Assembly (NCBI RefSeq): GCF_000015225.1
Contig: NC_008698.1
Location: forward strand, 660,001 to 692,000
Reading direction: 5' to 3'
Origin: Thermofilum pendens Hrk 5
Lineage (GTDB): Archaea > Thermoproteota > Thermoprotei > Thermofilales > Thermofilaceae
Length of the DNA: 32,000 bases
A program made the translations under genes and the position numbers. Shown here one piece after another: positions 7,280 through 28,434 of this stretch. Positions within the stretch are counted from its first letter, which is position 1. Every line of letters starts with the position of its first letter. The notes under the pieces were generated by a model that was not told the origin of the DNA, ran no database searches, and saw only the letters and a program-made list of their open reading frames with translations.

Positions 7280-7410
7280 CGAGGTCGGATGGGCACGTTA
7301 CAAAGAAAAATGTGTTTCGCAACAGAAAAGGTGTGTGAGCATCGCACACGGAGGGTACAGCTACTTCTAGACCACGCCGCTCTTACATGGAATCATGCGC
7401 AACAGAAGAT

Positions 7411-7524
7411 GCCCCACCACGGCGCTTTCCCGGGGCCGCAGACCCCAGTACTCGCGACCGCGTCGGTGGCTTAGCTTCCGGGATCTGACGAGACCGGGCG
7501 TTGCCCACCGACTATGGGCGGGGC
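7411..7524 (-). rRNA. rrf: 5S ribosomal RNA (stand-alone; ends +/- about 5 nt)
   Basis: The minus-strand reading is GCCCCGCCCAUAGUCGGUGGGCAACGCCCGGUCUCGUCAGAUCCCGGAAGCUAAGCCACCGAC...GGUGGGGC. It contains the conserved CCCGGAAGNUAAGCC loop-C/helix-III motif. Helix I pairs GCCCCGCC with GGUGGGGC (8 bp, one G-U), and helix II pairs GUCGGUGG with CCACCGAC (8/8). The listed ORFs 7229..7474 and 7367..7549 are therefore spurious. Confidence 0.85.
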
Positions 7525-7547
7525 GTGAAAAGGCTTGCATGTCTAGC

Positions 7548-8820: not shown

Positions 8821-9264
8821 TTGATGCTTATGGGGGAGAGTGGACTCTGGGAGGAGGTCGAGAAGAAGGTTTCGAGAGTAATTGAGGGTGTGGAGGCTAC
8901 TCTGAGGGAATTCGTGGAGCGCGAGAACTTATCCGTTGCAGACGCTAAGAGGATTCTCGAAGAACTGGCTCCTAGCTTCTCGCTACTCGCGAAGAAGGGC
9001 GTGCTGGAAGTTCTCTACACGCTGCTCCTCCTCGGTCCCCTCTCTTTCACCAGGATACTGGAATCCACAGGCCTCAACAGGCGTACGCTTTCGACTAGGT
9101 TGAAACAGCTACAATCGGAGGGGCTGGTAGTCAAGGTGCGCGAAGAGGGGGTCGAGGGTTCTTCGAGATATGCGCTCACAGAGGCTGGTAAGGCGACCGC
9201 CCTGCTTGCAATCCCGCTCATCTACTACATTTCGAAGCAGAAGAGGAGGGGCGACCTACGATAA
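8821..9264 (+). CDS. Winged-helix transcriptional regulator (HxlR/ArsR-like)
   Basis: KKGVLEVLYTLLLLGPLSFTRILESTGLNRRTLSTRLKQLQSEGLVVKV...RYALTEAGK follows the HxlR-type wHTH pattern. ATGs at 8824 and 8830 follow an ATATAAAT box at 8807-8814. The 3' end overlaps the convergent ATPase gene by 9 nt. Confidence 0.7.
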   Translation: MMLMGESGLWEEVEKKVSRVIEGVEATLREFVERENLSVADAKRILEELAPSFSLLAKKGVLEVLYTLLLLGPLSFTRILESTGLNRRTLSTRLKQLQSEGLVVKVREEGVEGSSRYALTEAGKATALLAIPLIYYISKQKRRGDLR

Positions 9265-10311
9265 CGCCGAAGAGTGTAGCTCGAGGTGGATCCTGCGGGG
9301 CCTGGGGTCTCCCTGCCTCACGAGGAGCGCGTTGCCCCGGGCGCTGTAGAGTAGGTGGTCGTAGTCGAGCCTCGTCAACTGCACCACGCGCGCAACGTCT
9401 AGGACGAAGCTCTCGGGGCCGGAGAGGACTACGAGGAAGCCCGCGAGCTGGTACACTCTTGGGTCCATCTCCCGGGGGAGCTGCGTTACTGCTAGTAACC
9501 CCCACCCGTACTTCCTAACTTGCTTGAATAGGGAGAGGATGTAGTCTTTGACTAAGTGGGCCTCTTCGAGTACTACCAGGTGCTCCAGTCTGTGTCTAGC
9601 ACCTTTAGTCCTCATGTAGCCTTCGAGGAGCAGTAAGAGTATCTGCGAGCTGAGGGCCAGGAACTCCCTCGAGACCAGCGCCGGGTAGTAGAAGTAAACG
9701 TCCCTAGTGAGCTCCGCGATCGATGCCCCCTCATTGGAGTGGATTCTCGACAGGTCGTCGTATATCCTGAGGAGGTTCGGATCCTCCTTGGACACTTTCT
9801 CGAAGAACTCTAGGCTTCCCTCCTCGAAGCACCTCTTTAGGATCTCCCTGAGGATGCTCCTATAGCCGGGAAAGCCGTAGATAGCCTCGATGTACCTGCT
9901 CAGCTCCGAGGCCAGCTCGCTGGCCCCCCACCCCGGCGCTTCGAGAACGTTCACCCTGAAGTCGCCGAGCCCGAAAGACCTCTCGAAGAGCTTCCTGTAA
10001 GTAGCCTCGGAGTGAGGGTCGATGACCCACGACGTGACGCCCAGCCTCCTCGCTTCGAGCATAATGTGCCTCGCTAGGCTCGACTTCCCGCTCCCAGTGG
10101 TCCCCAGGATGACCCCGTGCATATTCGGTAGCTTTTCGGGGTTCAAGTACACGTTTCTTCCTCTATCGTCCCTGCCCAGGAAGAGCCCCCCGCTTTCCTC
10201 CGAGGGTGGCAGGACTGCGAAGGGGCTTAGGATTGCGAGGTCTCCCGTTAGCGCGTAGATTCGCCTACCGGCGGCGGCTCGCAGTAACCTGTACGCCAAG
10301 CCCGAGGTCAT
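9256..10311 (-). CDS. Minimal VirB4/CedB/HerA-type P-loop translocation ATPase (ATPase domain only)
   Basis: The ORF track gives 9256..10437. An in-frame ATG at 10311 makes an ATGA stop/start overlap with the upstream gene (tcat at 10308-10311 on the + strand), so I start it there (351 aa). Motifs are Walker A GTTGSGKSS, Walker B-like HLVVLEEAH, then LLAVTQLP, which is the HerA/FtsK/VirB4 layout. Confidence 0.7.
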   Translation of the reverse strand: MTSGLAYRLLRAAAGRRIYALTGDLAILSPFAVLPPSEESGGLFLGRDDRGRNVYLNPEKLPNMHGVILGTTGSGKSSLARHIMLEARRLGVTSWVIDPHSEATYRKLFERSFGLGDFRVNVLEAPGWGASELASELSRYIEAIYGFPGYRSILREILKRCFEEGSLEFFEKVSKEDPNLLRIYDDLSRIHSNEGASIAELTRDVYFYYPALVSREFLALSSQILLLLLEGYMRTKGARHRLEHLVVLEEAHLVKDYILSLFKQVRKYGWGLLAVTQLPREMDPRVYQLAGFLVVLSGPESFVLDVARVVQLTRLDYDHLLYSARGNALLVRQGDPRPRRIHLELHSSALS

Positions 10312-11372
10312 AGCAACGCACCCAGCGAGAACAGGCTCTTCCTGAAAGAGAACCCAGCTGCGGCGAGCGTCCTCGCGGTGTCGGCAGGCGCTACGAGCAA
10401 GCCCTCCACGAGGTAAAGAGCTTCCTCTCTCTCCCACCGTCTACGGGCGGCCGCGAAGAACTTCGAGCTCTCGTGAATCCAGGACAGCTTGTCGAAAGCT
10501 GTACCGAACTCGTACGTCCTGTAGGCTTGAGTATCTATGCTACGCTCTAGCTCCGCGTCGGCTCGTTTCACGCGGAGGACAAGGAGCACGCTGTCCGCTA
10601 GGCTGTACACGAGTTGCGCCCGGGAGAAAACGTCGCTCATCGAGGTATACGTATAGAAGCTCGTCACGGAGTCCAGGGAAAACACCTCTCGGCCTTTTGG
10701 CACGGAGTAGCCCCTCATACCGTCGGGCAGAGAGGCCAGCAGTAGAGCTAGGGAGGCGGGGGCTAGGAAGGGTAACTTCCACAGCGCCACGACACCTCCG
10801 GTGAACGCGAGCACCCTTCTGAAGAGCCCGCCGCGCACCTCTCTCAGGAAGTCCGGCCTCAGCAAGGAGTATACCTCGCGTCCGCTCAGAGCCCTAAACG
10901 AGCAACCCGAAACTGCGAGAGCCCTCCTCACCCTTTCAAGCGAGCTGGCAACGACTTCTACTGCCCCTTCAAGCCTCTCGTCACACCCCCTCACTAAGAG
11001 GTAGTAGCTACCCGAGCGCACGACGAGGTAGTAGTCTGCGTTGCCGGCGAGCGCCAGCGTAAGTAGTCGGGACGCCGAGAACCAGAAGCCGCGCTCAACC
11101 ATATCGTAGACACCGTGCCTGCAGTCTACAACCTCGAACCCCGCGTAGAGGCAGACGAACCTCCCTACCTTTGCCCTGCAGTAGTTCTCCTCGGTCAAAA
11201 GCGGCGGCAAGGGGAAACCGCCGTGAACGAACACCTTCGCGACGGCGAACACTTCGGGGTATACCAGGAGAAGCCCGCTCGCTATCAGCAGCGCTCCGTA
11301 CGTCTTGGCTTCGCCGCCTTGCATGAAGAAAAACCCGGCGGCTATGAGAAGCCCGGCGAGCCTCCTACGCAC
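10308..11372 (-). CDS. Membrane-anchored protein, possible VirB3/VirB4 N-terminal-domain equivalent
   Basis: 354 aa with a GTG start that overlaps the upstream stop by 8 nt. It has two N-terminal TM helices (LAGLLIAAGFFFM; ALLIASGLLLVYPEVFAV), a soluble region, one more hydrophobic segment (GGVVALWKLPFLAPASLALLLASL), and a C-terminal region. It is translationally coupled (ATGA) to the ATPase. The functional assignment is inference only. Confidence 0.5.
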   Translation of the reverse strand: MRRRLAGLLIAAGFFFMQGGEAKTYGALLIASGLLLVYPEVFAVAKVFVHGGFPLPPLLTEENYCRAKVGRFVCLYAGFEVVDCRHGVYDMVERGFWFSASRLLTLALAGNADYYLVVRSGSYYLLVRGCDERLEGAVEVVASSLERVRRALAVSGCSFRALSGREVYSLLRPDFLREVRGGLFRRVLAFTGGVVALWKLPFLAPASLALLLASLPDGMRGYSVPKGREVFSLDSVTSFYTYTSMSDVFSRAQLVYSLADSVLLVLRVKRADAELERSIDTQAYRTYEFGTAFDKLSWIHESSKFFAAARRRWEREEALYLVEGLLVAPADTARTLAAAGFSFRKSLFSLGALL

Positions 11373-13962
11373 GGCTAGCCCCCTCTCGCCCCTCCCATTC
11401 CTTCTTTATCTTCTCCCAGAGGTTGCTCGGAGGACCCTTCTCGAGTAGGCTCAGCGGACTATCCGAGTAGAGTAGCTTCTTAATGTACCTGGCCTCCTTG
11501 CCCGCATACTCCTCGAGCCTGTCGAGGGCCTTTATCCTTAAAAGTGTGTTGATATTGGAGAGGAGCAACGGAGTGTCCGGTAGCACCAGCTCCTCCCTAA
11601 GCGCTTCGAGTGCGGCTTTATCCTTGACCACGTCTAGAACAGCGCTGCCAACCTCTCGCGCGCCTCGCGCCCTAGCGATCTTCGCCAGTATCTCGTCGAT
11701 AAGCTTTACCGCTCTTTCTCCGCCGGGCTTCGATAACAGCCTAGCCTTTGTTCTCTCTAGGTAGTGAGTGGCTACTTCTTTCATTGCCGGGAGGAGTATT
11801 TTGTCGTACTCCGGGAAGTACCTCGCTATGACCTCCTCGTTGTGGTACATCTTCCACGGCGGTAACCTTCTCAGCCTGTAGTCGTACCCTCTGAGCACCC
11901 AGGGTACCAGGCTGAGCCCGTCCCTAATCCTAACGCCTAGCCAGAAAGCCTCAGGGCTCGCCAGGGCTTTGCGTATAGCTTTGATCGCGAGGGAGCCCGG
12001 CTTCTGGCTGAGTACGTACTCGAGTTTCCCCAGCTTTTTGCCTAGCCTATCCAGTCTCTCGGCCCTGTCGGCACGCCACCTGTCCAGCTCGACTATGGCT
12101 AGGTTGTCGGCGATGGCTTTCCCCATGTGGAGCAGGGAGGGGATAGGCCTTTTCGACAGGTACTTCGGGACCTCCCTCAGAGACTTCTCGACTACTCTTC
12201 CAAGGATTCTAGACGGACTTCTAGGCCTCATCATTGATATCTCCAGGAGCATGATCTCCGAGGGCCTGTGCGCCCCCTCCTTCTTCGAGATTTGGGAGAG
12301 GAAGTACGCGAACGCGGGGCGTGAAGCGCTCCTTAAGGGAGCGGCGAGCGAGCCCAGGGTTCTCGTTAAGCTCGTCGAGGCGAGCCCCGCGGAGAGCAGG
12401 AGTAGCCCGGCGCCCACCGCTACTACGAGGAGGTACGCGTTGTACAGTGTCCCTGCAAGGTCTAGGATCCCTCCGAGCGCCTCCTCTACGCGCGTCCGGA
12501 GAGCCTCTACCTGTAGCCAGCTGGAGACAAAGGTGGGCGCCGAGCTCGCGTTCCAGGAGCCTAGCCCGTAGAACCTAACCCTCGGGGCGCCCTGATCGGA
12601 GGAGCCAGTGCAATTCCCCGTCCAGGTTCTAATGCGTACGCTGTAGGTCGTGAAGCTCGGCTTCTGCGTTTTCAGCAGTAGCTTGTCGAGCTTGTCGCTG
12701 GGGATACTAAGCGATAACCGCTTCACCCAGGCATTGTACGCTTCGACCCACGCTTCAAAGGCGCCTGCATCTATCTCCGAGCCGGGAGGACCGCCCCCCG
12801 CGACCGTGTACGAGAGGTACCAGCAGGATCTATTCCCCGCCGCCGCGCTTCCGTTCACGTAGAGGACGTCGAACCCTCCTCCCCTGGCGTAAAACTCGAA
12901 CTCCCGGAGCTCTGGTTGAAGCTCGAACTCAACCCACCCGTTACCCTCGGACGAGGGGCTCAGCGCGGAGGCGCCGTGATAGCCGACAACATGCCCCGAA
13001 GTCCCCCCACTACGGTGGATAACGTTGACGGGGAGCCACACGAGGAGAGTAATTGTGCAGTTGGGTTCTACACGTGTACGCGCAGGGCTTACGTAGCAGT
13101 TACAGAAGGAGCCCGGCGTTGGATCGAAGCAACAACCGTGGAGCGAGAAGTTCGCCCAGTAGTTGGCAACCCAGAGAAAGGTGTAGTTACCGGCGGGCAC
13201 CGGGACTCGCTCGCCGCTACGCGCTCTGAGCACGATTCTCGAGCCAGACGTGTCGGTCGCAGCAACGAGGACTACGTCGGGTATGCTCTTAAGGGAGAGG
13301 TCGCGAACGTCGAACTCGAAGTACCCTATCTCGCGTGTATAGTTGAGCGGGGGGAGCGGCGTCCCACAGTGCTTCACCCCGGAGAGGGAGAAGGGGAGGA
13401 TAACGGTAACCGTTACTAGCAGCGCGGCGATAGGCAGGGTGACTTTCCTGAGGCGGGGCACGGAGATAGAGAGTATCAGGGCCTTCGTGTAGTCCCTTAA
13501 TTGCAACGAAGCAACTAGAAGTGAATGGGCTACTCTTAGGAGGAGCCACGCGGTCCCCAGGATTGTGGCTATGTTCTCCAGGGGTCCTATCACTAAGTGT
13601 CTAACAGGGTCGAAGTACTGGAGGGCCTCGGAAGCCTCGGGAAGCCCCAGCGCTATAGCTAGGCTTACCGCCACGTCTACTACCGCCACTGCCCCTAGAG
13701 TGGAGAGGACGGACCTGTAATACGCCCACAGGCTCCTGGATAGGCTTTCAACGTGCCTAAAGGACTCATCGAGTGCCACCCTGGAGTAATAGGAGTAGAG
13801 CCCCAGAAGCGCTAGGGAGAGCGCCTGGAAGAGGGCTAGCTCTGCTACCTCTCTGGAGATGGCTGAGACGGCCTTGCTGCGCCTCTGCGTAGCGTAGTAG
13901 TAGAGCGTCTCGAAGGCTATGATTGCAATGGCGATCCCGGCCCACTCGGTGTCTCCAATCAT
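11365..13962 (-). CDS. Large (865 aa) membrane protein: polytopic N-terminus, Cys/N-glycosylation-sequon-rich ectodomain, TM helix, about 330-aa helical cytoplasmic tail
   Basis: The first about 200 aa contain several hydrophobic helices. The middle about 300 aa carry NYT, NYT, NFS, NCT, NGS, NRS, NCT and NAS sequons plus a Cys cluster (HGCCFDPTPGSFCNCY). A strong TM helix follows (AYLLVVAVGAGLLLLSAGLA), then a charged helical tail. ATGA overlap with the upstream gene at 13959-13962. Confidence 0.65.
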   Translation of the reverse strand: MIGDTEWAGIAIAIIAFETLYYYATQRRSKAVSAISREVAELALFQALSLALLGLYSYYSRVALDESFRHVESLSRSLWAYYRSVLSTLGAVAVVDVAVSLAIALGLPEASEALQYFDPVRHLVIGPLENIATILGTAWLLLRVAHSLLVASLQLRDYTKALILSISVPRLRKVTLPIAALLVTVTVILPFSLSGVKHCGTPLPPLNYTREIGYFEFDVRDLSLKSIPDVVLVAATDTSGSRIVLRARSGERVPVPAGNYTFLWVANYWANFSLHGCCFDPTPGSFCNCYVSPARTRVEPNCTITLLVWLPVNVIHRSGGTSGHVVGYHGASALSPSSEGNGWVEFELQPELREFEFYARGGGFDVLYVNGSAAAGNRSCWYLSYTVAGGGPPGSEIDAGAFEAWVEAYNAWVKRLSLSIPSDKLDKLLLKTQKPSFTTYSVRIRTWTGNCTGSSDQGAPRVRFYGLGSWNASSAPTFVSSWLQVEALRTRVEEALGGILDLAGTLYNAYLLVVAVGAGLLLLSAGLASTSLTRTLGSLAAPLRSASRPAFAYFLSQISKKEGAHRPSEIMLLEISMMRPRSPSRILGRVVEKSLREVPKYLSKRPIPSLLHMGKAIADNLAIVELDRWRADRAERLDRLGKKLGKLEYVLSQKPGSLAIKAIRKALASPEAFWLGVRIRDGLSLVPWVLRGYDYRLRRLPPWKMYHNEEVIARYFPEYDKILLPAMKEVATHYLERTKARLLSKPGGERAVKLIDEILAKIARARGAREVGSAVLDVVKDKAALEALREELVLPDTPLLLSNINTLLRIKALDRLEEYAGKEARYIKKLLYSDSPLSLLEKGPPSNLWEKIKKEWEGREGASRA

Positions 13963-14732
13963 ACCCTGACGAACCCGACGAATACTGAGTCGAAGGCCGA
14001 GGCGAGCCCCACGCCGCCTACAGTTGCGAGAGCGAAGGCTAGGGACGTGAGGGTCAGCGCCTTTCCCAGGAGCACAGCGTTCTCCCCGGCTACACCGGCT
14101 ACGTTGACCCAGTCAAGAGGGCTCGACGCGCTGGGAACCCTTACCCCTCTGAGTGCGTCTGATGTTACCTGGAGGGAGTATGCCATGGCTATCGCCGTGG
14201 AGAGGTAGATGGAGAGAAGCGAGGCTCCGAGTCTTCGAAGCCTGGGTATAGGCATTAGCGCCGCGCCGAACGCAAAGAGGTAGGGAGATACTATAGAGAA
14301 AGCCTCGGCAGCGAAAGAGAGATGCATATACACTATAGCTACTATTCCGAGCTCCGCGGTCGACCACCCGGTAGCGCCACCGAGGACGCTGGCTAGGGGG
14401 CTTGTCACAGGTGTACTTGCCAGCAGTGCTCTCTCGGCCTCGACGAACAAAACTGTATCGACGGCCTTCCTGCTGGCTTCCCAGAAGGTCTCGGAGGCTC
14501 TACGGGCGCACGCGCTGACGTCTGCGCTGCTCCAGAGGTTGAGCTGGACACCGGCTAGTGTTGCGATCTGCGAGGAAACGCCGAGTATCACGTGGACGAC
14601 GACCACGAAGGCCGCGCTGAGAGCAGCGTCTTCGAAGAACCTTAGGGACTCCGAACGCCGTCCCAAGAACCAGTAGAGAAGCCCCACCGCAGCGTAGAGA
14701 CCCGCGCCCACGGCAGCAGTCAGGGCTTCCAT
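13959..14732 (-). CDS. Polytopic membrane protein (about 6 TM), CedA/VirB6-like by size and topology
   Basis: 257 aa, almost entirely hydrophobic helices (e.g. AAVGAGLYAAVGLLYWFLG, AAFVVVVHVILGV, IVAIVYMHLSFAAEAF, LLSIYLSTAIAMAY, LTLTSLAFALATVGGVGLA). It lies 13 nt downstream of the pilin-like gene. The family assignment is inferred, not shown by alignment. Confidence 0.55.
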   Translation of the reverse strand: MEALTAAVGAGLYAAVGLLYWFLGRRSESLRFFEDAALSAAFVVVVHVILGVSSQIATLAGVQLNLWSSADVSACARRASETFWEASRKAVDTVLFVEAERALLASTPVTSPLASVLGGATGWSTAELGIVAIVYMHLSFAAEAFSIVSPYLFAFGAALMPIPRLRRLGASLLSIYLSTAIAMAYSLQVTSDALRGVRVPSASSPLDWVNVAGVAGENAVLLGKALTLTSLAFALATVGGVGLASAFDSVFVGFVRV

Positions 14733-14745
14733 TGGAAGTCATCCC

Positions 14746-15270
14746 TTAGGAGCCGGAAAGCGCCGAGAGTACTATCTGCCACCCCCTCTGGAGGAGAGAG
14801 TTCAGTATGTCCGCGACCTGGGAGACCTCCTGTATGCCGATACCCTTCATTATCTGAACCGAGAGGAAGATTATCGGGATAATGGCCAGAGTCTCGGCGG
14901 CTTTGAGGAACTTCCCCACAGCTAGGCTCCTCCCAAAACTCCCTCCGGTAAACCATGAGAGGAGCGCATCCACGATTATTAAGGCGAAGCCTATAATGCC
15001 GATGCCAAATGCTATTGCAAGGAAAACGGCGACGGCATCTCTGAACGGCCTAAAGATATTCGAAACAACCTCTTCGGCGCTCGTAAATGCGGTCGTCGAG
15101 GATTGCAAGACCAGTAGAAGGGCTACAGTCCGCGAGTCACCTCTCAGAACCCTCTCCAGGACTTTTCCCGCCTCGCGCCAACCAGCCTCTCCGTCTTCCC
15201 TGAGTCTCTTCACGTTGCGCATTACCCACTCCCAAACGATCTTCACAGCTAGAAGCCTCAGTGTCTTCAA
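14746..15270 (-). CDS. Two-helix hairpin membrane protein with long leader: candidate VirB2/TrbC/CedA1-like pilin
   Basis: 174 aa from TTG 15270 (alternative ATG at 15222). It has a charged N-terminal leader and a signal-like segment TVALLLVLQSSTTAFTSA. Two long hydrophobic helices follow (AVAVFLAIAFGIGIIGFALIIVDALL and AETLAIIPIIFLSVQIM), joined by a basic loop. It is the first gene of the operon. Confidence 0.5.
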   Translation of the reverse strand: MKTLRLLAVKIVWEWVMRNVKRLREDGEAGWREAGKVLERVLRGDSRTVALLLVLQSSTTAFTSAEEVVSNIFRPFRDAVAVFLAIAFGIGIIGFALIIVDALLSWFTGGSFGRSLAVGKFLKAAETLAIIPIIFLSVQIMKGIGIQEVSQVADILNSLLQRGWQIVLSALSGS

Positions 15271-15370
15271 GCGTAACCCCCGTTACTCTCTTCGAGTAAC
15301 TTTTAATGCGCTGGAATAGCGACCCGCGCCTTTTCCACGATAAAAGCTTGTGGAAAGGATGTGGGGGGCT
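15271..15370. promoter_or_regulatory. Divergent control region with two TATA-like boxes and two perfect palindromes
   Basis: GTTACTC-n5-GAGTAAC (15282-15300) sits between the minus-operon start (15270) and its TATA-like TTAAAAG (minus strand, complement of 15301-15307). TTCCAC-n11-GTGGAA (15333-15355) brackets GATAAAAGC (15339-15347), which lies about 27 nt upstream of ATG 15371. Confidence 0.55.
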
Positions 15371-16084
15371 ATGGCTGTTAGGGTGGCTTTTGTGAGTGGT
15401 TCGAAGGGGGGTACGGGTAAGAGTGTGCTTTCGAGCTTGGCTTCCTTCGAGCTCGCGTCTATGGGTAGGAAGGTCCTCCTAGTCGACCTCGGGGAGCTGG
15501 GTAGTAGTACGCAGCTGTGCCTCGCGGAGGACCCGGGACCCCCCTACCTCTCAGACTTCTTCCAGGGCAAGGCTTCCTGGCGGGATGTCATTGTGGCGAG
15601 CCCCTGGGAGAAGCTCTTCGTAGCGCCCTCCTCGAAGCAGCAGGGACCCGTGGACGCCGATAGCCTTGAGTACCTCTTGGAGGCTGTCGACGGGTACGTG
15701 GACTTCGTTGTTCTCGATATGCCGGCTTACCCGGGGACTCTCTACGACCCCGTAGCCGCCCTCGCCGAGGTACTCGCGCTGGTAATGAACCCCGACAAGC
15801 TCTCCTTCTCCGCTGTAGGCGGCTGGTACGTGGGCAGGGAGTTTGCTAGGAGGAAGCTGGCGCTACCGGTACTCAACAAGTACCACCCCGTGATGTCCCC
15901 CTGGCTTGACAGGCTACGCGAATACTTCGGAGCAGTTTTCACGGTAAGCTTCGACCCCGCGCTAACCTTCGCCTACACTGAGACGATAGCAGACGCCCAC
16001 AAACACCTCTCAAAGAAAACAAGAGAAGAAGTAAAGCTACTCGTACAAAGGCTCGACAAGCCTCTCTTGAAGGTGACGAGATGA
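15371..16084 (+). CDS. ParA/MinD-family (SIMIBI) ATPase
   Basis: Deviant Walker A GSKGGTGKS, then VLLVDLG, and Walker B-like FVVLDMPA. The track ORF starts at GTG 15350. I prefer ATG 15371 (MAVRVAFVSGSKGGTGKS), which gives the usual short N-terminus and fits a leaderless transcript from the TATA at 15339-15347. ATG 15359 is also possible. Confidence 0.75.
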   Translation: MAVRVAFVSGSKGGTGKSVLSSLASFELASMGRKVLLVDLGELGSSTQLCLAEDPGPPYLSDFFQGKASWRDVIVASPWEKLFVAPSSKQQGPVDADSLEYLLEAVDGYVDFVVLDMPAYPGTLYDPVAALAEVLALVMNPDKLSFSAVGGWYVGREFARRKLALPVLNKYHPVMSPWLDRLREYFGAVFTVSFDPALTFAYTETIADAHKHLSKKTREEVKLLVQRLDKPLLKVTR

Positions 16085-16437
16085 GCCAGCCCAGAAGACC
16101 TTTCGCCCAGCAGAGAGGCGAAGACGAGAGGCAAGGCAAGCCATCGCTACCAGTCCCGCGCGTAGAGGTAGAGGAGGCGCGCCCCCCGAAGCCCGCCGAC
16201 GCAGAAGAGGAGCTCGTTAGGCGCGGCGTGGAGGGTTTAAAGGCCGTATTGGACGCCGTAGGCCTGGACCCGGGAATAGCCGAGAAGGTTAAGGAGAAGC
16301 TCCGGAGCATAGCGGACGAGGTTGCGCGGATAAACGAAAGGATCAGCGCGCTGGAGCAGGAAAGAGGCAGGCTTCTCGCAGAGAGGGAGAGGCTTCTCAG
16401 GCTTCTCAAAGCTTTCTCAGAGGTGAGAGCACAGTGA
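16081..16437 (+). CDS. Small coiled-coil protein (disordered basic/acidic N-terminus, C-terminal heptad helix)
   Basis: 118 aa. ATGA overlap with the ParA stop at 16081-16084 and GTGA overlap with the next gene at 16434-16437. The C-terminus ADEVARINERISALEQERGRLLAERERLLRLLK is coiled-coil-like. Confidence 0.6.
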   Translation: MSQPRRPFAQQRGEDERQGKPSLPVPRVEVEEARPPKPADAEEELVRRGVEGLKAVLDAVGLDPGIAEKVKEKLRSIADEVARINERISALEQERGRLLAERERLLRLLKAFSEVRAQ

Positions 16438-17612
16438 GGCTTCCAAGGCTCTTCAGGGGGAACGCGAAGCGCGAAGAGGAGCTTGTAAGCGTAAGTGAAG
16501 CTCTGCCGCCGGACGCCAGGCTGGTAGACAAGAACGAGTTCGGCGCTCTCTTCATCAAGAACGACACTTTACTGGTTCTGCCCTTCAGGCGGCACGAGGT
16601 CTGGGGAGCTTTCGCGCCAATCTTTACAAGCAGTAAAGTGGAAGAAGCCTGGATCTTCGAGGGTAGAGGGGTCGTCACGCTACGCGGCGTCGGGAGGGTG
16701 AGCTTCCCGGCAGACTCGGTCCCGGACTCCTTAGAAGAGCTTGTAACCAGAATCATAGCGGCGAGCGGGGTGAACGTCTCCCTGAGGAATCCGAGAGGCG
16801 TAGCTGACATCGGAGAGTGGCGCGTAGCGATACAAGTCCAGTCAGGGGGTCAGCTCCACCTCGTCGCGACGCGAGTAACCAGCGTCCCTCCCCTCGAGGA
16901 GGTCGTCCCGCCCCTTCTCGCAACTAGGCTCGTGCTACTGCTGGTTCGCCCATCCACGGTCGTGATAACGGGGCCTCCGGGAAGCGGAAAAACCACCGTG
17001 CTCTCCGCGCTTGTAAAGGCGGTCGCGGACTTTTTCCCCTGGCTGCACATCGCGATAGTCGAGAAGTACAGGGAGCTCAGTTTCAGAGGGGGCTGGTTCA
17101 CGCAGGTAGTCTCGGAAAACCTAGCCGAGGGCGTTAGGTACGCTATGCGCTACCTCAGACCAGACCTCCTCGTTGTCGGGGAGATACTGGCCGAAGACTT
17201 TTGGAGCCTACTAGAGCCGACTCGCGCGGGCATCCCCACCGTGACGACCTTCCATGCGCCCTCGGCACAGAGAGCCCTCAAGTCTCTCTCGGATGCCCTT
17301 AGGGTTCACCTGGGGGGAGCGACGAACGTGCTCAACTACCTTGACGTCCTCGTAGTAACGTCTAAGGTTATAACGTCGAGCGGAGTCTCGAGGGGGGTAA
17401 GCGCGGTCTACCTTTCCGACGGGCAACGCCTAGTGCCGGTCTACCTCGAAGGGGAGCACGCCGAGGAGGATCTCTTCAAAAAGGCTCTGCCCGACAAGCT
17501 CTACGTGGGCGACCTAGTCAACGTAGAGAAGACTTTAAGAGAGAGGTTCAGGCCGGACGAAGCCCAAGCGAGCTTCCTAAAGGAGCTCGCGGCGCTTTCC
17601 CTTGAACGTTGA
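16434..17612 (+). CDS. VirB11/FlaI/PilT-superfamily secretion ATPase (divergent)
   Basis: Walker A VITGPPGSGKTT, Walker B region RPDLLVVGEI, His-box-like VTTFHA, and an N-terminal about 170-aa domain as in VirB11/GspE-type ATPases. The Asp-box position reads IVEKYREL, and GEI is followed by L rather than the usual R. Confidence 0.7.
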   Translation: MRLPRLFRGNAKREEELVSVSEALPPDARLVDKNEFGALFIKNDTLLVLPFRRHEVWGAFAPIFTSSKVEEAWIFEGRGVVTLRGVGRVSFPADSVPDSLEELVTRIIAASGVNVSLRNPRGVADIGEWRVAIQVQSGGQLHLVATRVTSVPPLEEVVPPLLATRLVLLLVRPSTVVITGPPGSGKTTVLSALVKAVADFFPWLHIAIVEKYRELSFRGGWFTQVVSENLAEGVRYAMRYLRPDLLVVGEILAEDFWSLLEPTRAGIPTVTTFHAPSAQRALKSLSDALRVHLGGATNVLNYLDVLVVTSKVITSSGVSRGVSAVYLSDGQRLVPVYLEGEHAEEDLFKKALPDKLYVGDLVNVEKTLRERFRPDEAQASFLKELAALSLER

Positions 17613-19017
17613 AGACTTCTTCAAGAAAGCAGGTCTGACGCCCCGCCCTTTACAGCTCGAGACGGCTAGGGAGCTCGCCTCCCAGCTACCCGGAAACGTC
17701 GGGCTCGAAGCGCCCCCCGGTTGGGGGAAGACTATCGCAGTCCTCGCGGCGCTAGCCTCCGCGGGCGCCCTCCCAGCGGTGTGGAGGGTCAGAACCTACC
17801 CGCAGGCGCGGAGGATCTCGGAAGACGTTGCCGTCGCGAACCTCAAGCCCTTCGTAGCTGGCGGCCGCGAGAGGACGTGCCCCCTCGCGGGCGAGTTGAG
17901 GGCTAACGTGCACCACTACTGCAGGTACCTGAAGCACAAGTGCCCCTACTTCAAGTTGCTCGTGGAGTCTCCGGTGCGACTAGGCTACGTGCCGTCGTAC
18001 GAAGACCTGCCACCCGAGGTCTGCCGCTACTACCTACAGGAGAACGTGGGAGCGGACGTCTACATAGCCACGTACAACACGGGGCTCAACTTCGGCGGAG
18101 TACAGACCGTGGTCGACGAGGCCCACAACGCCGTCTCGGTGCAGTCCATGCCACTCTCAAAACTGAGAGAGGGGCTAGCCGAGCTGGCACAAGTTGCCGG
18201 TAGCGAGGAGCTCCTCGACAAAGTCGAGAAGTTTGACGTCGTGACCAACGTCCGGGTATACCTAGAGGAGCTTACAGCCGCGCTCGTCGAGGCGCTTGAG
18301 AAGGGCGCAAGACCGAGAAGCGCACCCAAAGTGTTAAGCTTCATACGTGAGGCACCCTTCCTGTGGAGGGAGGGAGAGGAGGTCTACACGCTGAAAGTCT
18401 ACAGGCCTAGAGGGCCCTCGCTCTACGTATCGGCAACGCTCACCCCCGTGGCGCACGTATTCAACGTACCAGTGGTCTCAGTGCCGTGGCAGAAGAAATA
18501 CACGGCCGCCATTACCACGTGGCTCACAACGGCGTACAGAGAGTACGGACCACCCCTAGCCAGGGAGTACAACAACCTCCTGTTCTTCCTGAGGCGCTTT
18601 TTCGACAGGATACTCGTTTTCGCGACGTCAAGGGTCGCCAAGACCCTTTCAGCCGACACTACGAACCCTGAGGAATGGAACAGAGGCGTACTGTTGTTGT
18701 TATCCCACGGGAGGTACGCTGAAGGCGTAGACCTACCCGCCGACTGCGTCGTCATGGCGGGAGCCCCCTACCTACCCCCGTACGTGTCAGCAAGACTGGC
18801 GGCTGTGGGGCTAAAGCCGGACGACGTTGTGGCTATAACGACGGTGCAGAACGTGGGGCGGGCTACGAGGACGCCATCAGCGTCACCCTTCATCGTACTC
18901 GCCGATGAGCGCTACGCGCGCCTCTCGATCCCGTACTTCGACGTAGTTGAAGTTCACAGCTTGAAGGATCTCGAAGCAATAATCACCAAGCTGGTACGCG
19001 TACATGCCACGCAGTAG
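17602..19017 (+). CDS. Compact XPD/Rad3/DinG-family SF2 helicase with 4-Cys (Fe-S type) insertion
   Basis: 471 aa with a TTG start and an 11-nt overlap with the upstream gene. Motif I EAPPGWGKT, motif II VVDEAHN, motif III YVSATLTP, motif V GRYAEGVDLP, motif VI VQNVGRATRTP. Four Cys lie between motifs I and II (TC-x13-C-x6-C-x26-C), where the XPD Fe-S domain sits. Confidence 0.75.
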   Translation: MNVEDFFKKAGLTPRPLQLETARELASQLPGNVGLEAPPGWGKTIAVLAALASAGALPAVWRVRTYPQARRISEDVAVANLKPFVAGGRERTCPLAGELRANVHHYCRYLKHKCPYFKLLVESPVRLGYVPSYEDLPPEVCRYYLQENVGADVYIATYNTGLNFGGVQTVVDEAHNAVSVQSMPLSKLREGLAELAQVAGSEELLDKVEKFDVVTNVRVYLEELTAALVEALEKGARPRSAPKVLSFIREAPFLWREGEEVYTLKVYRPRGPSLYVSATLTPVAHVFNVPVVSVPWQKKYTAAITTWLTTAYREYGPPLAREYNNLLFFLRRFFDRILVFATSRVAKTLSADTTNPEEWNRGVLLLLSHGRYAEGVDLPADCVVMAGAPYLPPYVSARLAAVGLKPDDVVAITTVQNVGRATRTPSASPFIVLADERYARLSIPYFDVVEVHSLKDLEAIITKLVRVHATQ

Positions 19018-19034: not shown

Positions 19035-19078
19035 ACGCGTGCGTCGTGCGCTATGCGAAAAGCATTTTTACGCGTGCG
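19035..19078. repeat. Direct repeat ACGCGTGCG x2 flanking a TATA-like box
   Basis: ACGCGTGCG occurs at 19035-19043 and 19070-19078, either side of AAAAGCATTTTT (19057-19069). It lies just upstream of ATG 19104. Confidence 0.4.
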
Positions 19079-19103
19079 AAAGGAGGCTTGGGTTAGGATC
19101 GAT

Positions 19104-19403
19104 ATGAGTAGCGACGGGTCTCTATGCATGGTTGAGGGTTGCTCGGCGGGGGCAGACATACTCTTAGAGGTCAGAGGCCAGCAACTACTTTTGTGTAAAA
19201 CGCACTTCAAGGATCTTGTCTCAAGGCTAGCGAAGGCGGCGGAGAAGGAGGGGAAAGCCTCTCTTCTAAGGTTGAAGGTTCAGAAAACCAGCGACGGGAA
19301 GGTCCGCCTGCTCATAAGGAGGAAGGTCTCAAGGGCTACGAAGAAGTCTGAGAGGAAGACACGCAAGAAGAGCAGAAAGAAGGGTAAATCGCGCTCGAAG
19401 TAA
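19104..19403 (+). CDS. Small protein with CCCH-type metal-binding motif and Lys/Arg-rich tail
   Basis: The track ORF is 19053..19403. I prefer ATG 19104 because the TATA-like box at about 19057-19069 lies inside the longer version. Sequence is MSSDGSLCMVEGC-x17-CKTH followed by ...RKVSRATKKSERKTRKKSRKKGKSRSK. Confidence 0.5.
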   Translation: MSSDGSLCMVEGCSAGADILLEVRGQQLLLCKTHFKDLVSRLAKAAEKEGKASLLRLKVQKTSDGKVRLLIRRKVSRATKKSERKTRKKSRKKGKSRSK

Positions 19404-19408
19404 CTTCG

Positions 19409-19906
19409 TCAGCTATGTAGCAACTCGAGTAGTTGTTCTAGCGTGCTCCTGATAGCGTTGTAGGCAGTCTCTCCTATCACGCCTCTCTCGAACGCTTTCT
19501 TCAAGGTCTCCTGCTTGGAGGCAACGTCCTCCTCCGTCAACCCTAGGGGTAGCCCTGCCCTCTTGCTGTGGGTGAGGCTCCTAAGCGTGAACTCTTCGAG
19601 CGCAACCCAGAGGCTCTCCACCTCCCCCCTAAGCTTTTCAACCTCCGACTCCAGCTCTCCTATCTTCTTCTCGGCCTTCTCCTTGTCCACAAGCCCCAGC
19701 TCGACTTTGAGCTTCAACTCTTCCAAGGCCTTGAGGTCGGACTCAAGCTTTGCCTTAAGCTCGCTCAGCTCGCTCAGGAGGTCCAGCTTCGACAACTCCC
19801 ATTCGCGGACGGCGGCCTTCACCGACTCCACGTACTCGCCCCAGAGGTCGTCGGCCTTGTCGTAGAGCCCTTTAAGCCTCTCTATTACAGGCGCCAGGCC
19901 ACTCAA
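19409..19906 (-). CDS. Coiled-coil protein with C-terminal SHOCT-like motif (paralogue of the upstream gene's C-terminal half)
   Basis: 165 aa. Heptad-rich centre with C-terminal LKKAFERGVIGETAYNAIRSTLEQLL (SHOCT-like G-h-I-x-E-x-Y). The N-terminal VIERLKGLYDKADDLWGEYVESVKAAVREWE aligns with LIERAGELARIWEEYDRAAREVVERWE in the upstream protein. Confidence 0.6.
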   Translation of the reverse strand: MSGLAPVIERLKGLYDKADDLWGEYVESVKAAVREWELSKLDLLSELSELKAKLESDLKALEELKLKVELGLVDKEKAEKKIGELESEVEKLRGEVESLWVALEEFTLRSLTHSKRAGLPLGLTEEDVASKQETLKKAFERGVIGETAYNAIRSTLEQLLELLHS

Positions 19907-19907
19907 C

Positions 19908-20690
19908 CTACTCCACCTCCTCCTTTATCTTTTCGAGGCGCTTAATCCTTTCCTCAAGCTCGCTCCTAAGCTTCTCGTAGACCTCCTCGGAAATACCGCC
20001 CGACTTAAACCTCTCCTCGAGCTTTGCGAGCGCCACCTTGAGCTTCGCTATCTCCGGCTTCACCTCGGCGACCTTTACCCTCTTGAAGTGCGGGAGAACA
20101 ACCCTGTCCAGGTCCGCCAACACCCTGCTAAGCTCCTCCCTCTCCTTGTTCTTCTCGGCGAGTCTCCTCTCGAGGCTTGCCTTCAACTCCCCATACTCCT
20201 CCTCGCCGATAACCCCTGACTCGCGCATTTTTTCAAGCCTCTCCAGCTCGTCGACGTACGCCGTTATCGTGGCATCCACCCCGGCGAGCTCTCTGGATAT
20301 CCTCTCCCTAACGTCCTCCCACCTCTCGACAACCTCCCTCGCAGCCCTGTCGTACTCTTCCCAAATTCTCGCCAGCTCTCCAGCCCTCTCAATCAGAGCC
20401 TCCGCCTCGGAGACCAAGCTTGCATGCTCCTCCGCAGCGACGGGGGGAGCCGGAGCGACGGCCGCAGTCTCCCGAGGAGTTTCCGGAGGCTTAGCCTCTA
20501 CGGGGACAACCACCTCTTCGGCTTTCGGCTTAGCCTCCTCAGCTTTCTTTGCCTGCTGGTAGTAAGGGCACTCCCAGTACTCGAGTAGGCATGGCATGAA
20601 CGCGGGATCGACTTCCGCTCCGCCAGCATACCTACAGTAGAACTTACCGCGCTGATCCTTGTAGAGCCCTGGGCAAACCTCCCTCGCCAT
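19908..20690 (-). CDS. 4-Cys N-terminal domain + Pro/Ala/Glu linker + coiled-coil with two SHOCT-like motifs
   Basis: The track ORF extends to 20738. I prefer ATG 20690 (MAREVCPGLY...) because an AAATATTA box on the minus strand lies about 30 nt upstream of it. Cys pattern is C-x12-C-x14-C-x6-C. SHOCT-like motifs are LEKMRESGVIGEEEYGELKASL and LEERFKSGGISEEVYEKLRSEL. Confidence 0.6.
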   Translation of the reverse strand: MAREVCPGLYKDQRGKFYCRYAGGAEVDPAFMPCLLEYWECPYYQQAKKAEEAKPKAEEVVVPVEAKPPETPRETAAVAPAPPVAAEEHASLVSEAEALIERAGELARIWEEYDRAAREVVERWEDVRERISRELAGVDATITAYVDELERLEKMRESGVIGEEEYGELKASLERRLAEKNKEREELSRVLADLDRVVLPHFKRVKVAEVKPEIAKLKVALAKLEERFKSGGISEEVYEKLRSELEERIKRLEKIKEEVE

Positions 20691-20845
20691 GCGACTCCTG
20701 ACTAAGACAGCATGCAATCTAATATTTGTAGCGCACACGAGGAGGGAGCCGGGCGACTCTTCCTGATCGTTTTCCGCTTAAAGGTCACGCGTACAAAAAA
20801 CCGATACCCTTAACTCTGAGGGGTTTTTCGTTTTGGCGAGGACGC

Positions 20846-21067
20846 ATGTCTGAGGCTTACTGCAAGTACTACGTCCACACGGCGCGCGGGCAGCGTTGCG
20901 CCTTTATAGGCGTACGCGAGTGGCGTTTAACATCGGAAAAGTACCTCGAGTTCTGCAAGAAGGGGGGCGCCGGGTGCCCGGTCCTCGCCAGTATAAACGC
21001 CCGTGTCGCGTCGCACGTGAACGGCTTCCTGAAGGTAGGTGAGAATGTCCTGTTTAAGGAAGGCTGA
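20846..21067 (+). CDS. Small 4-Cys protein (same Cys-domain pattern as the divergent neighbour)
   Basis: 73 aa, YCKYYVHTARGQRCAFIG...YLEFCKKGGAGCPVL = C-x11-C-x20-C-x6-C. It overlaps the start of the downstream membrane-protein gene, which suggests coupling. Confidence 0.45.
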   Translation: MSEAYCKYYVHTARGQRCAFIGVREWRLTSEKYLEFCKKGGAGCPVLASINARVASHVNGFLKVGENVLFKEG

Positions 21068-24218: not shown

Positions 24219-25439
24219 ATGAGCGCGAAGAACATAGTTGTTGAGAAATCGAGCTACATCCCGCCGAGCAGGCTCCCCGTAGAGATAGTGGAGCGGAAGG
24301 GGACGGGCCACCCAGACTACATTGCAGACTCCATTTCGGAGGCAGCGAGCAGGGAGCTATCAAGGTACTACCTAGAGCACTACGGGGCAATACTACACCA
24401 CAACCTCGACAAGGTTCTAGTCGTCGGGGGACAGTCTAGCCCCAGGTTCGGGGGCGGGGAGGTAGTCCAGCCCATATACATACTCGTATCCGGGAGAGCG
24501 ACCACGGAGGTAGTCTCGGAAGGAGGCAGGGAGAGCGTGCCCGTCGGCCCGATCATACTCAAGGCGACCCGCGACTGGATAAAGAGCAACATCAGGTTCC
24601 TGGACCCCGATACCCACGTCATCGTAGACTACAGGGTAGGCAAGGGCTCCGCAGACCTCGTGGACATATACAACCGCAGGGGGAGCTATCCCGGGGCGAA
24701 CGACACCTCGATGGGTATAGGCTACGCACCCCTCTCGCCGACCGAGAGAGCCGTCCTGGAGACCGAGAGGTTGCTGAACTCCGAGAAGGTTAAGAAGGAG
24801 CTACCGGCCGTCGGGGAGGACGTAAAGGTCATGGGGGTCAGGAAGGGCAACAAGCTAACGCTCACGGTCGCCATGGCCGTGATATCGAGGTTCGTCCACA
24901 GCACCGAGGAGTACCTCTCCCTGAAGGAGGAGGTGAAAAAGCTCGTAAAGGAGCACGCCGCTAGCATCACGGATCTAGACGTGGAAGTCTACGTAAACAC
25001 GGGCGACGACCCCTCCAGGGGGGACAAGGGAGGGCTCTACCTCACGGTCACGGGGACCTCGGCCGAGCACGGAGACGACGGGGCCACGGGGAGGGGTAAC
25101 AGGGCGAACGGGCTCATAACGCCCTTCAGACCTATGTCCCTGGAGGCGACCGCAGGCAAGAACCCCGTCAGCCACATAGGGAAGCTGTACAACGTCGTAG
25201 CTTTCCAGGCGGCAAGCGAGATATGCGGGTTAGACCACGTCAACGAGGTCTACATCAAGCTGATAAGCCAGATAGGGAAGCCGATAAACCAGCCTCTACT
25301 AGCCTACATAGCCATAAACGCCCCCGACGACGTCCTCGCCCGCGTAAAGCACCAGGCAGAGGAAGTTCTAGCAAAGCACCTAGACAGGATAAACGTGCTC
25401 TGGGAAAGCATACTGAAGGGAAACGTGTCCCTGTTCTAG
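24219..25439 (+). CDS. mat: Archaeal-type S-adenosylmethionine synthetase
   Basis: [36 protein letters not shown] and [11 protein letters not shown] match the archaeal MAT family pattern. Length is about 406 aa, with ATG at 24219 (the track starts at TTG 24216). Confidence 0.9.
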
Positions 25440-27424: not shown

Positions 27425-27490
27425 AGCCCCGACAAGAGTTAGCCCCCCGCTCCCCGATATATACCTGACGCGCGCTCGTGCCTTTTACCG

Positions 27491-28396: not shown

Positions 28397-28434
28397 AAAA
28401 GAAGCTCGCCGCGCGAATCTAAATCTTTACCGTC

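Follow-up and report, generated by a model that had tools for sequence, protein, structure and literature searches.

A 32,000-nucleotide stretch of the Thermofilum pendens Hrk 5 chromosome (NC_008698.1, positions 660,001 to 692,000; hereafter the window) contains nine open reading frames (ORFs) at 9256-19017, tightly packed into two divergent operons (Table 1). We read this locus, with a probability of about 0.6, as a chromosomally fixed cell-surface machine that derives from a type IV secretion system (T4SS), belongs to the same kind as the Ced and Ted systems, is specific to Thermofilaceae, and would work by exchanging DNA. To our knowledge, Ced and Ted are the only known domesticated conjugation machines. 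The Ced system, found in Sulfolobales, Desulfurococcales and Acidilobales, consists of CedA, CedA1, CedA2, CedB, CedD and CedE (PMC11868833, PMC11823120), and the Ted system of Thermoproteaceae, as in Pyrobaculum calidifontis, consists of TedA, TedB and TedC with TedD, ParA and Rad50 encoded nearby (PMC9905601, PMC11823120). Published Ted loci come from five Thermoproteaceae genera and do not include Thermofilum (PMC9905601). How the substrate becomes single-stranded, which proteins process the DNA and which ATPase drives export are stated as unknown in this literature (PMC9905601, PMC11868833).

The last two genes of the minus operon are a VirB4 divided into two. The initial annotation, made from the DNA sequence, had described the first of them, a 354-residue product, simply as membrane-anchored, in agreement with its N-terminal hydrophobic region and a second hydrophobic stretch at residues ~193-215. 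Searches of Pfam, NCBIfam and PDB, including a family profile against PDB, gave no sequence match, and an exhaustive HMMER search found only 18 representatives of the family. When its AlphaFold2 model (16 sequences; predicted local distance difference test [pLDDT] 89, predicted template modelling score [pTM] 0.82) was compared with PDB by Foldseek, the top 14 matches were all TrwK/VirB4 of R388 (E 2.4e-4 to 5.7e-3, probability 0.99-1.00, query-normalised TM-score 0.35-0.49), followed by unrelated flavoenzymes at E values of at least 1.4e-2. The model thereby identifies the protein as the predicted N-terminal domain of VirB4, and refines the original description to one half of a split VirB4. 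The other half is the 351-residue ATPase, whose gene overlaps that of the N-terminal half by ATGA. VirB4 is called split here because the two genes are fused in a 749-residue relative, P0047, of which residues 70-343 match the 354-residue protein (E 4.4e-8) and residues 394-747 the window ATPase (30% identity, E 2e-47). The cluster of this relative, in which both domains form one polypeptide, has five members of 749-754 residues from independent data sets.

The ATPase itself carries Walker A (GTTGSGKS at 70), Walker B (LVVLEEAH at 245) and an RKYG motif at 266, and, as a member of the FtsK/HerA/VirB4 superfamily, matches Pfam DUF87 (1.5e-9). In NCBIfam it scores best with VirB4-like CD1110 (3e-11), CedD (2.8e-9) and CedB (2.4e-8) versus HerA at 1e-3, with all scores far below the curated equivalog cut-offs (CedB, 33.1 bits against 700; CedD, 36.2 bits against 600). 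In PDB, its family profile (15 sequences) finds HerA at 6.6e-13 and the C-terminal domain of VirB4 (4ag5) at 4.8e-10, and the sequence of the motor alone does not separate VirB4 from HerA. The assignment of the pair to VirB4 is made because the partner has the predicted VirB4 N-terminal fold and is fused to the ATPase in the relative. The fused protein also scores CedB and CedD (2e-20 and 73 bits each), VirB4-like (1e-17) and TraC (5.8e-14) above HerA (3.6e-10), in keeping with the VirB4/HerA-type ATPase that had been proposed at first. The 354-residue family gave no significant alignment with the N-terminus of the 609-residue CedB-like protein P0027 (hhalign probability 1.5%). Elsewhere, the fused 749-residue VirB4-like gene P0054 (L061:4261-7778) is divergent from a neighbouring gene for a RadA/Rad51 recombinase; uracil-DNA glycosylase is encoded close by, and no pilin or channel genes adjoin. 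This neighbourhood could be a coincidence or a link between DNA import and recombination.

Two further products of the minus operon are, as judged from family alignment, paralogous candidate channel-type proteins, one of them extended, because the N-terminus (~200 residues) of the 865-residue protein is homologous to the family of the 257-residue protein (hhalign 97.5%, E 8e-12, 178 columns); a P-x-P-R-L-R-K motif is common to both families. The 865-residue protein has no Pfam match and consists of an N-terminal membrane domain of ~200 residues, an ectodomain of ~300 residues, a transmembrane segment at ~502-532 and a charged, helical C-terminal domain of ~330 residues that is cytoplasmic. All eight N-glycosylation sequons lie at residues 207-471, in the middle domain, which corresponds to the large ectodomain first noticed in this membrane protein. 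In bacteria, too, some VirB6 proteins are extended by large extra domains. The 257-residue protein, initially given six transmembrane segments, is indeed polytopic but has seven helices in its AlphaFold2 model (pLDDT 82, pTM 0.75), and VirB6 has been described as seven long helices (PMC9259494). A kinship with VirB6 and CedA had been suggested for it; in Foldseek searches of PDB, TrwJ/VirB5-TrwI/VirB6 stalk chains of R388 take ranks 1, 3, 18 and 22, but none of these matches is significant (E at least 0.21, TM-score 0.24-0.32). No GspF/PilC/TadB platform protein is among the top 50, no T2SSF match was found in Pfam, and a family search against PDB was also empty. On the basis of the model, the protein is likely to be VirB6-like.

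Directly upstream of this VirB6-like gene lies the gene of the pilin candidate. The 174-residue product starts with a long leader, which signal peptidase is predicted to cut near TAFTSA↓EE; in the mature part (~110 residues), two hydrophobic helices are joined by a basic GGSFGRS loop. In an alignment of eight orthologs the leader is variable and the mature hairpin, with its W-x-x-G-G-S-F-G-R-S loop, is conserved, so that the two-helix, pilin-like character noted at the outset extends to eight lineages. In L003, L014, L015 and L016 the leader is a short Sec-type signal peptide with an A-x-A-like site (~22 residues in the deeper lineages), and in the Thermofilum/Infirmifilum clade it is ~65 residues long and rich in lysine and arginine. 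Such a long leader recalls those of bacterial VirB2 and TraA. Among archaeal pilins, TedC is cleaved by signal peptidase I and CedA1 is not (PMC9905601). A leader followed by a two-helix hairpin is the VirB2/TedC pattern, which makes this protein a pilin candidate. Sequence matches in Pfam or PDB were not found, also with the family profile against PDB. A relation of the kind reported between CedA1 and CedA by Beltran et al. (PMC9905601) was tested by aligning the pilin family with the N-terminus of the 257-residue family and was not significant (hhalign probability 19%).

The membrane operon is kept as a unit. ATPase loci were sought in genome contigs with a degenerate DNA motif for the C-terminal RQGDPRP region, which retrieved nine contigs, all of Thermofilaceae type. 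A five-gene core (pilin, 257-residue type, extended paralog, and the N- and C-terminal parts of VirB4) is present in every lineage with enough sequence (L001, L003, L014, L015, L016, L017 and L018). T. pendens shares the nine-gene arrangement with Infirmifilum lucidum (L001), with the metagenome contig L017 and with three others, L040, L045 and L060, which end before the final genes of the minus operon; since the block recurs in these genomes, the arrangement is not due to chance. Linkage of the plus operon to the core is confined to the Thermofilum/Infirmifilum clade, where at least seven helicase lineages have it. In one Thermofilum sp. lineage (L018, L011, L036, L029 and L058) the plus side is reduced to ParA and the helicase. 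These two genes are the constant parts of the plus operon, which is a clade-specific addition. The co-occurrence of the two operons, which the initial annotation had proposed to test, holds within the clade, where they are linked and divergent, but not in deeper Thermofilaceae, where the core stands alone.

The plus operon begins with a ParA-type ATPase, as first called, with a deviant Walker A motif (SKGGTGKS) and scores above both Pfam cut-offs (AAA_31, 2.9e-8, 34.3 bits against 27; ParA, 1.5e-6, 28.3 bits against 27.1). NCBIfam places it with MinD_arch (1.2e-11) and weakly with CpaE_hom_Actino (1.9e-7). It is a member of the ParA/MinD family, and by analogy a candidate for a VirC1-like role. 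The second product, 118 residues long, is disordered at its N-terminus and forms a coiled coil towards its C-terminus; it gives weak coiled-coil matches in accordance with the early call and is a candidate adaptor. Its orthologs accompany the third product, a 392-residue ATPase, in L001, L017, L034, L040, L045, L052 and L060, and both are absent in L018 and L036. This ATPase has a Walker A motif (GPPGSGKT at 180), LLVVGEI at 245 and a His box (TFH at 272), and matches Pfam T2SSE (6.1e-12, 45.3 bits against a cut-off of 24.9). Its best NCBIfam models are TrbB_P (7.5e-11, 41.9 bits against 304.6) and VirB11 (2.6e-9, 36.5 bits against 250), both far below cut-off, with a weak match to the TadA-type 'heli_sec_ATPase' TIGR03819 (4.8e-8). 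Against PDB the family profile ranks DotB first (5.1e-9), with A. fulgidus GspE2 (2.8e-8), PilT, CpaF and a VirB11-like protein (9.8e-5) among the other matches. The VirB11/FlaI family named in the initial annotation is therefore right at the level of T2SSE and of the best models, but its motifs and matches mark this ATPase as VirB11/DotB/PilT-class rather than provably VirB11.

The last product of the plus operon, a 471-residue helicase, matches Pfam Helicase_C_2 (28.5 bits, cut-off 25.3). With a profile of four sequences, PDB yields XPD of Sulfolobus acidocaldarius (3crv) at 4.1e-18 over nearly the full length, as well as the XPD proteins of T. acidophilum, human and yeast (range ~1e-18 to 1e-12). 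The single sequence, in contrast, retrieves no PDB chain at E <= 1, and the protein falls below the TIGR00604 rad3 cut-off (18.6 versus 247). All superfamily 2 (SF2) motifs are present, and the invariant residues comprise Q18, APPGxGKT, C93/C107/C114/C141, DEAHN, SAT, EGV within an SEGVD stretch, and QxxGRxxR; the four cysteines lie between motifs I and II, in an insertion of the 4Fe-4S type. The XPD-family candidate of the initial annotation is thereby upheld as a compact helicase of this family, from a divergent, paralog-like branch, and not as a close XPD ortholog, because only the family profile, and not the single sequence, finds XPD in PDB. Members of the XPD helicase family translocate 5'->3', and the same polarity and an iron-sulfur cluster would be expected here.

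Other neighbourhoods of this helicase provide the strongest argument tying the plus operon to the membrane machine. A degenerate motif covering motif VI and the following LAD-x-R was used to search metagenome contigs, and the 42 loci found, together with the window and earlier loci, represent 22 lineages at 70% identity. The split-VirB4 operon adjoins the helicase in 7 of these 22. In five to six more (L019, L020, L022/L030, L028/L054, L035/L059 and L043/L053) the helicase stands directly beside a P-loop ATPase gene, which in most is co-directional and immediately upstream (downstream in L020 and L022/L030). CedD is the best NCBIfam model for these ATPases in all six tested, at 1.7e-44 in L028 and 7e-11 to 2.7e-5 in the others. 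A gene of a T4SS-type ATPase, in one form or the other, hence adjoins the helicase in approximately 12-13 of the 22 lineages. CedD has been shown by experiment to be needed for DNA import in Sulfolobales (PMC11823120, PMC11868833) and has been proposed to be VirD4-like (PMC11823120); the two 2025 Ced papers do not mention an XPD-like helicase.

The pairs of CedD-like ATPase and helicase genes are often only 1-100 nt apart (e.g., L035:8032-10987) and come from Thermofilaceae-like or Thermoprotei metagenome lineages. In L022 and L053, a second ATPase of the same superfamily, 600-670 residues long, is encoded a few genes away. In addition, genes recur just upstream of such pairs (L019:4789-5337, L030:4082-5361 and L022:3764-4258) whose products are small and soluble, begin with a W-F-T-V-x-K/R-x-P-like motif and match nothing in Pfam.

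Several points weigh against the locus being a DNA-exchange machine. The pilin is assigned from sequence features only, and the VirB6 assignment of the 257-residue protein stands on the non-significant Foldseek matches given above. The machine could also carry protein instead of DNA, or no cargo. In the deeper lineages L003, L015 and L016 the plus operon is not beside the core, which is flanked by unrelated genes such as those of topoisomerase VI and OMP decarboxylase, and the loss of the VirB11-class ATPase and the coiled-coil gene in L018 and L036 points the same way. In L002, L004, L006 and L007 the ATPase of VirB4 C-terminal type stands as an orphan amid housekeeping genes. Transfer genes do not adjoin the helicase at many of its loci, the remaining lineages placing it on short contigs or among housekeeping genes, with NrdD/NrdG and PheRS as one common context; the helicase could be a repair enzyme whose neighbourhood is incidental. 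As to the orphan ATPase, it is 38-40% identical, belongs to one Thermofilaceae sub-lineage and lies between the genes of NOG1 GTPase and eIF5A, with no N-terminal VirB4 or membrane genes nearby; the metagenome-assembled genome (MAG) JALSNQ01 has a second, partial copy.

Taken together, such points could mean that the minus operon is a T4SS-derived apparatus for a pilus, adhesion or protein export without DNA transfer, and that the plus operon is an unrelated neighbour, with a divergent XPD-type repair helicase and a ParA and secretion ATPase that act in some other process. The absence of the plus operon beside the core in L003, L015 and L016 and the helicase loci among NrdD/NrdG and PheRS fit this explanation, as does the IMG label ERCC-2 of the helicase cluster, whose named members come from Thermofilum sp., Thermoproteales and Thermoprotei MAGs. 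It is also well established that bacterial T4SSs include protein secretors and adhesive pili. However, a T4SS-type ATPase beside the helicase in more than half of its lineages is hard to obtain by chance for so rare a family, and one promoter region of ~100 bp is common to both operons in all loci of the Thermofilum/Infirmifilum clade. Furthermore, the helicase is far more divergent than a housekeeping ortholog would be, and the closest characterised systems, Ced and Ted, move DNA. We consider this explanation, an apparatus without DNA transfer beside an unrelated operon, unlikely.

T4SS genes normally reside on mobile elements, and the block could therefore be the remnant of an integrated conjugative plasmid or integrative and conjugative element rather than a domesticated host system. 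Its GC content (0.58-0.61) is slightly above that of the left flank (0.54-0.57), and the composition of the locus varies between lineages. Against such an origin, the 32-kb window has no integrase, transposase, tRNA or replication gene, and outside the locus it carries housekeeping genes (for TFIIE-alpha, an ECF transporter, GTPases, geranylgeranyl reductase, L13e, an Sm protein, SAM synthetase and RIO kinase). Thermofilum, Infirmifilum and several MAG lineages, with protein identities of 55-60%, have the same flanking genes (HxlR, geranylgeranyl reductase and a GFO/IDH oxidoreductase), which places the locus on the chromosome and indicates vertical descent. HxlR and geranylgeranyl reductase lie beside the ATPase gene in L001, L005, L011, L018 and L036, whereas in L017 HxlR is missing and the reductase is present. 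On the helicase side, Thermofilum and Infirmifilum have different flanks. Scans of viral contigs with the helicase and the N-terminal VirB4 families found no relative, and a plasmid search found none for the N-terminal VirB4 protein (tblastn) and, for the ATPase, two weak bacterial plasmid matches and no archaeal plasmid relative. A mobile remnant is thus very unlikely, and the initial view that the system is domesticated rather than plasmid-borne stands.

Highly improbable, too, is a type IV pilus or Tad-like system, in which ParA would be TadZ/CpaE, the T2SSE ATPase TadA/CpaF, the 257-residue protein the TadB/C platform and the 174-residue protein its pilin. The weak matches of ParA to CpaE_hom_Actino and of the ATPase to TIGR03819, the presence of CpaF among the PDB profile matches, and an actinobacterial neighbourhood of CpaE-like, TadA-like and DEAH-helicase genes known from TIGRFAMs speak for it. 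However, the locus has no T2SSF platform gene, the 257-residue model has no platform protein among its top 50 matches, and the motor of the membrane operon is of VirB4 type with a predicted VirB4 N-terminal domain as its partner. Moreover, the pilin candidate has a Sec-type or long leader and two transmembrane helices instead of a class III signal peptide with a single N-terminal helix, and L018 and L036, with an intact membrane operon, do without the T2SSE gene. Finally, it is barely credible that the locus has nothing to do with secretion and is a repair or defence module of HerA type that has membrane partners: HerA proteins, some of them defence-associated, do top the PDB matches of the ATPase profile, and Pfam names DUF87 'Helicase HerA central domain', but a HAS-barrel, NurA, Sir2 or another effector partner is absent, the protein upstream of the ATPase is modelled with the VirB4 N-terminal fold, the fused relative ranks HerA below CedB, CedD, VirB4 and TraC, and membrane proteins make up four of the five products of the operon.

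A T4SS-derived exchange machine could work as follows. The split VirB4, anchored by its N-terminal domain, would power the extraction of pilin from the membrane, and the processed pilin would build up into a pilus or conduit of conjugative type on a base that the two VirB6-like paralogs form, while the glycosylated ectodomain of the 865-residue paralog may contact a partner cell. On the cytoplasmic side, the VirB11-class ATPase would dock under VirB4 and ParA would position the DNA substrate in a VirC1-like manner. DNA is the presumed cargo, and its transfer could be import, as in Ced, export or both. The XPD-like helicase would unwind chromosomal DNA, with a single strand fed to or taken from the channel, and would in this way do the job of the relaxase-helicase in bacterial conjugation. 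Single-stranded DNA has been argued to pass through these narrow pili (Beltran et al., PMC9905601). A more general proposal, which we put forward tentatively, is that the XPD-like family is the dedicated DNA-unwinding motor of archaeal exchange of the Ced/Ted type, taking the place of the relaxase-helicase and acting with the translocating ATPase of each lineage, that is, with split VirB4, VirB11-class ATPase and ParA in Thermofilum/Infirmifilum and with CedD-like ATPases elsewhere. If true, no chromosomal archaeal system known would have a more complete set of conjugation-like genes than the Thermofilum locus.

Among the known systems, the locus is closer in style to Ted than to Ced because of the pilin signal peptide, the ParA gene and a host related to Thermoproteales; this likeness is drawn from published descriptions of Ted. 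The locus and Ted are both chromosomal, domesticated T4SS derivatives of related crenarchaeal lineages. Each encodes a pilin (here a candidate) with a cleavable signal peptide, an ATPase like VirB4, a membrane protein that resembles VirB6 (here as a likely assignment) and a ParA that may correspond to VirC1, and neither has a relaxase or integrase. ParA beside Ted genes has been reported and read as VirC1-like (PMC9905601). In contrast to Ted, the Thermofilum locus has VirB4 split into two genes and a second, extended VirB6-like paralog with an ectodomain; the VirB11/DotB/PilT-class ATPase, the coiled-coil protein and the XPD-like helicase replace the Rad50 and HerA-like (TedD) neighbours, and its type of core ATPase was found only in Thermofilaceae-type genomes. 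With Ced it shares a pilin (here a candidate), a polytopic membrane protein and ATPases of the FtsK/HerA superfamily on the chromosome, and the paralogous channel proteins CedA and CedE parallel the 257-residue protein and the N-terminus of the 865-residue one. CedB and CedD each carry a different part of the VirB4 N-terminal domain (PMC11868833). However, the Thermofilum ATPase matches the CedB and CedD models weakly (33 and 36 bits against 700 and 600), the Ced pilin is unprocessed whereas the Thermofilum candidate has a leader, Ced loci have not been reported with ParA, VirB11-class or XPD-like genes, and Ced works with Ups pili, none of which is seen at the Thermofilum locus. The Ced-like gene order and sizes first noted here point to the right kin, T4SS and Ced/Ted, by structure and sequence, but to the less similar of the two systems.

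Bacterial conjugation machines such as R388 Trw and Agrobacterium VirB-VirD4 (PMC9259494) share with the locus the predicted VirB4 N-terminal fold, a VirB4-type motor and, as candidates on the Thermofilum side, a seven-helix VirB6-like protein, a two-helix pilin with leader, a VirB11-class ATPase and a VirC1-like ParA. The Thermofilum locus differs in lacking VirB3 as a separate gene, VirB5, VirB7, VirB8, VirB9 and VirB10, as well as VirD4, a relaxase and oriT, in being chromosomal and vertically inherited, and in having an SF2 XPD-like helicase where bacteria use SF1 relaxase-helicases such as TraI. The actinobacterial neighbourhood mentioned above, which comprises a TIGR03815 CpaE-like protein, a TIGR03819 TadA-like ATPase and a DEAH-box helicase and has been proposed to act in conjugal transfer, is similar in combining a ParA/CpaE-like ATPase, a T2SSE-family ATPase and an SF2 helicase beside membrane and pilin genes. 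It is, however, bacterial, built on the Tad platform (TadB/C and TadE-like pilins) instead of VirB4 and VirB6, and uses another family of SF2 helicase, and the Thermofilum matches are far below the family cut-offs. Compared with archaeal XPD (S. acidocaldarius 3crv, T. acidophilum 4a15), the helicase has all the helicase motifs, the four-cysteine insertion and, between motifs II and III where the Arch domain lies, a helical insertion of ~100 residues. Yet it is ~80-150 residues shorter, is detected by family profile only, and stands beside T4SS-type ATPase genes rather than alone as a repair gene.

The initial annotation regarded the coupling of a helicase, ParA and VirB11 module to a Ced-like apparatus as new. 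For ParA this does not hold, as ParA, a HerA-like protein (TedD) and Rad50 beside Ted have been published (PMC9905601, PMC11823120), but neither paper mentions a VirB11-class ATPase or an XPD-like helicase. Wu et al. already credit Thermofilales with "CedD and VirB4". Thermofilum data are absent from the supplements of both 2025 Ced papers, and the 2014 'dark matter' paper does not mention Thermofilum. A defined Thermofilaceae locus, a clean split of VirB4 with a natural fusion, an extended VirB6-like paralog, a VirB11-class ATPase and the recurrent helicase association are absent from the literature searched. The locus extends systems of the Ced/Ted kind to Thermofilaceae with a defined gene set, and provides a third way of dividing VirB4 in archaea, a clean split into N- and C-terminal parts with a natural fusion as proof. 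It also offers testable candidates, namely the XPD-like helicase, the VirB11-class ATPase and ParA, which are encoded together with the membrane machine as a single bidirectional unit, and proteins from a hyperthermophile should suit biochemistry and cryo-electron microscopy.

The nine ORFs lie as they had first been delimited, and the same junctions between genes were found: in the minus operon a gap of 13 nt is followed by overlaps of ATGA, 8 nt and ATGA, and the plus operon has ATGA, GTGA and 11-nt overlaps. Pfam and NCBIfam return the families first called (DUF87/HerA-VirB4, ParA/MinD, T2SSE and Helicase_C_2), none of the proteins was placed in an unrelated family, and the operons are linked in other genomes too. 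The longest ORF of the 351-residue ATPase extends to 10437; an ATG at 10311 gives the 351-residue form, which is 100% identical to the NCBI T. pendens protein; the host is thus a member of Thermofilaceae and not of Desulfurococcales or Sulfolobales, the groups that the initial annotation had in view. The divergent control region, first estimated at 100 bp, measures 79 bp by ORF limits and ~100-150 bp with internal ATG starts, and does contain two promoter-like boxes. The pilin-operon box is the reverse complement of TTTTAAT at ~15303-15310, and the ParA-operon box is ATAAAAG at 15341-15347, with ~35 bp between the two opposed boxes. In an alignment of seven intergenic regions, A/T-rich boxes recur at both positions in the six orthologous loci. 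The boxes probably form a bidirectional promoter region. ParA probably starts at the ATG at 15371, which corresponds to the ortholog start (the N-terminus of L001 matches a start at M8).

Table 1. Genes and control region of the divergent locus and the adjoining regulator gene, in window coordinates
Feature	Position	Strand	Length	Remark
Pilin precursor candidate (VirB2/TedC-like)	14746-15270	-	174 aa	ORF; first gene of minus operon
Seven-helix membrane protein, VirB6/TedA-like channel or pilus-base candidate	13959-14732	-	257 aa	
Extended paralog of the 257-aa protein	11365-13962	-	865 aa	
Predicted VirB4 N-terminal domain as separate membrane-anchored protein	10308-11372	-	354 aa	
Predicted VirB4 C-terminal ATPase domain	9256-10311	-	351 aa	
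Divergent control region	15271-15370	.		Two opposed TATA-like boxes
ParA/MinD-family ATPase, VirC1-like candidate	15350-16084	+		
Small coiled-coil protein, adaptor candidate	16081-16437	+	118 aa	
Predicted VirB11/DotB/PilT-class secretion ATPase	16434-17612	+	392 aa	
Predicted divergent XPD/Rad3-family SF2 helicase	17602-19017	+	471 aa	
HxlR/MarR-type winged-helix regulator	8821-9264	+		Pfam HxlR 1.2e-6

At the outer end of the minus operon, the HxlR gene is convergent with that of the VirB4 C-terminal ATPase, with a 9-nt overlap, and its HxlR/MarR-type product may be a regulator of the locus. Beyond the helicase, 19053-22505 encodes a 116-residue protein that has Cys pairs and a tail rich in lysine and arginine, two proteins with coiled coils (165 and 276 residues; weak GvpG/SHOCT/CdvA-like matches) and a 488-residue polytopic membrane protein without a Pfam match. 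These genes are syntenic with the helicase end in L017, L034, L037, L038 and L040, and not in Infirmifilum. The genes of the GFO/IDH oxidoreductase and geranylgeranyl reductase flank a 5S rRNA gene on the minus strand at 7409-7525 (Rfam, 64.7 bits). Further downstream, 25400-29000 is GC-rich (0.63-0.68 versus ~0.55-0.60 elsewhere) and encodes a 662-residue DUF460 protein with a long coiled coil, a RIO2 kinase and a metallophosphoesterase.

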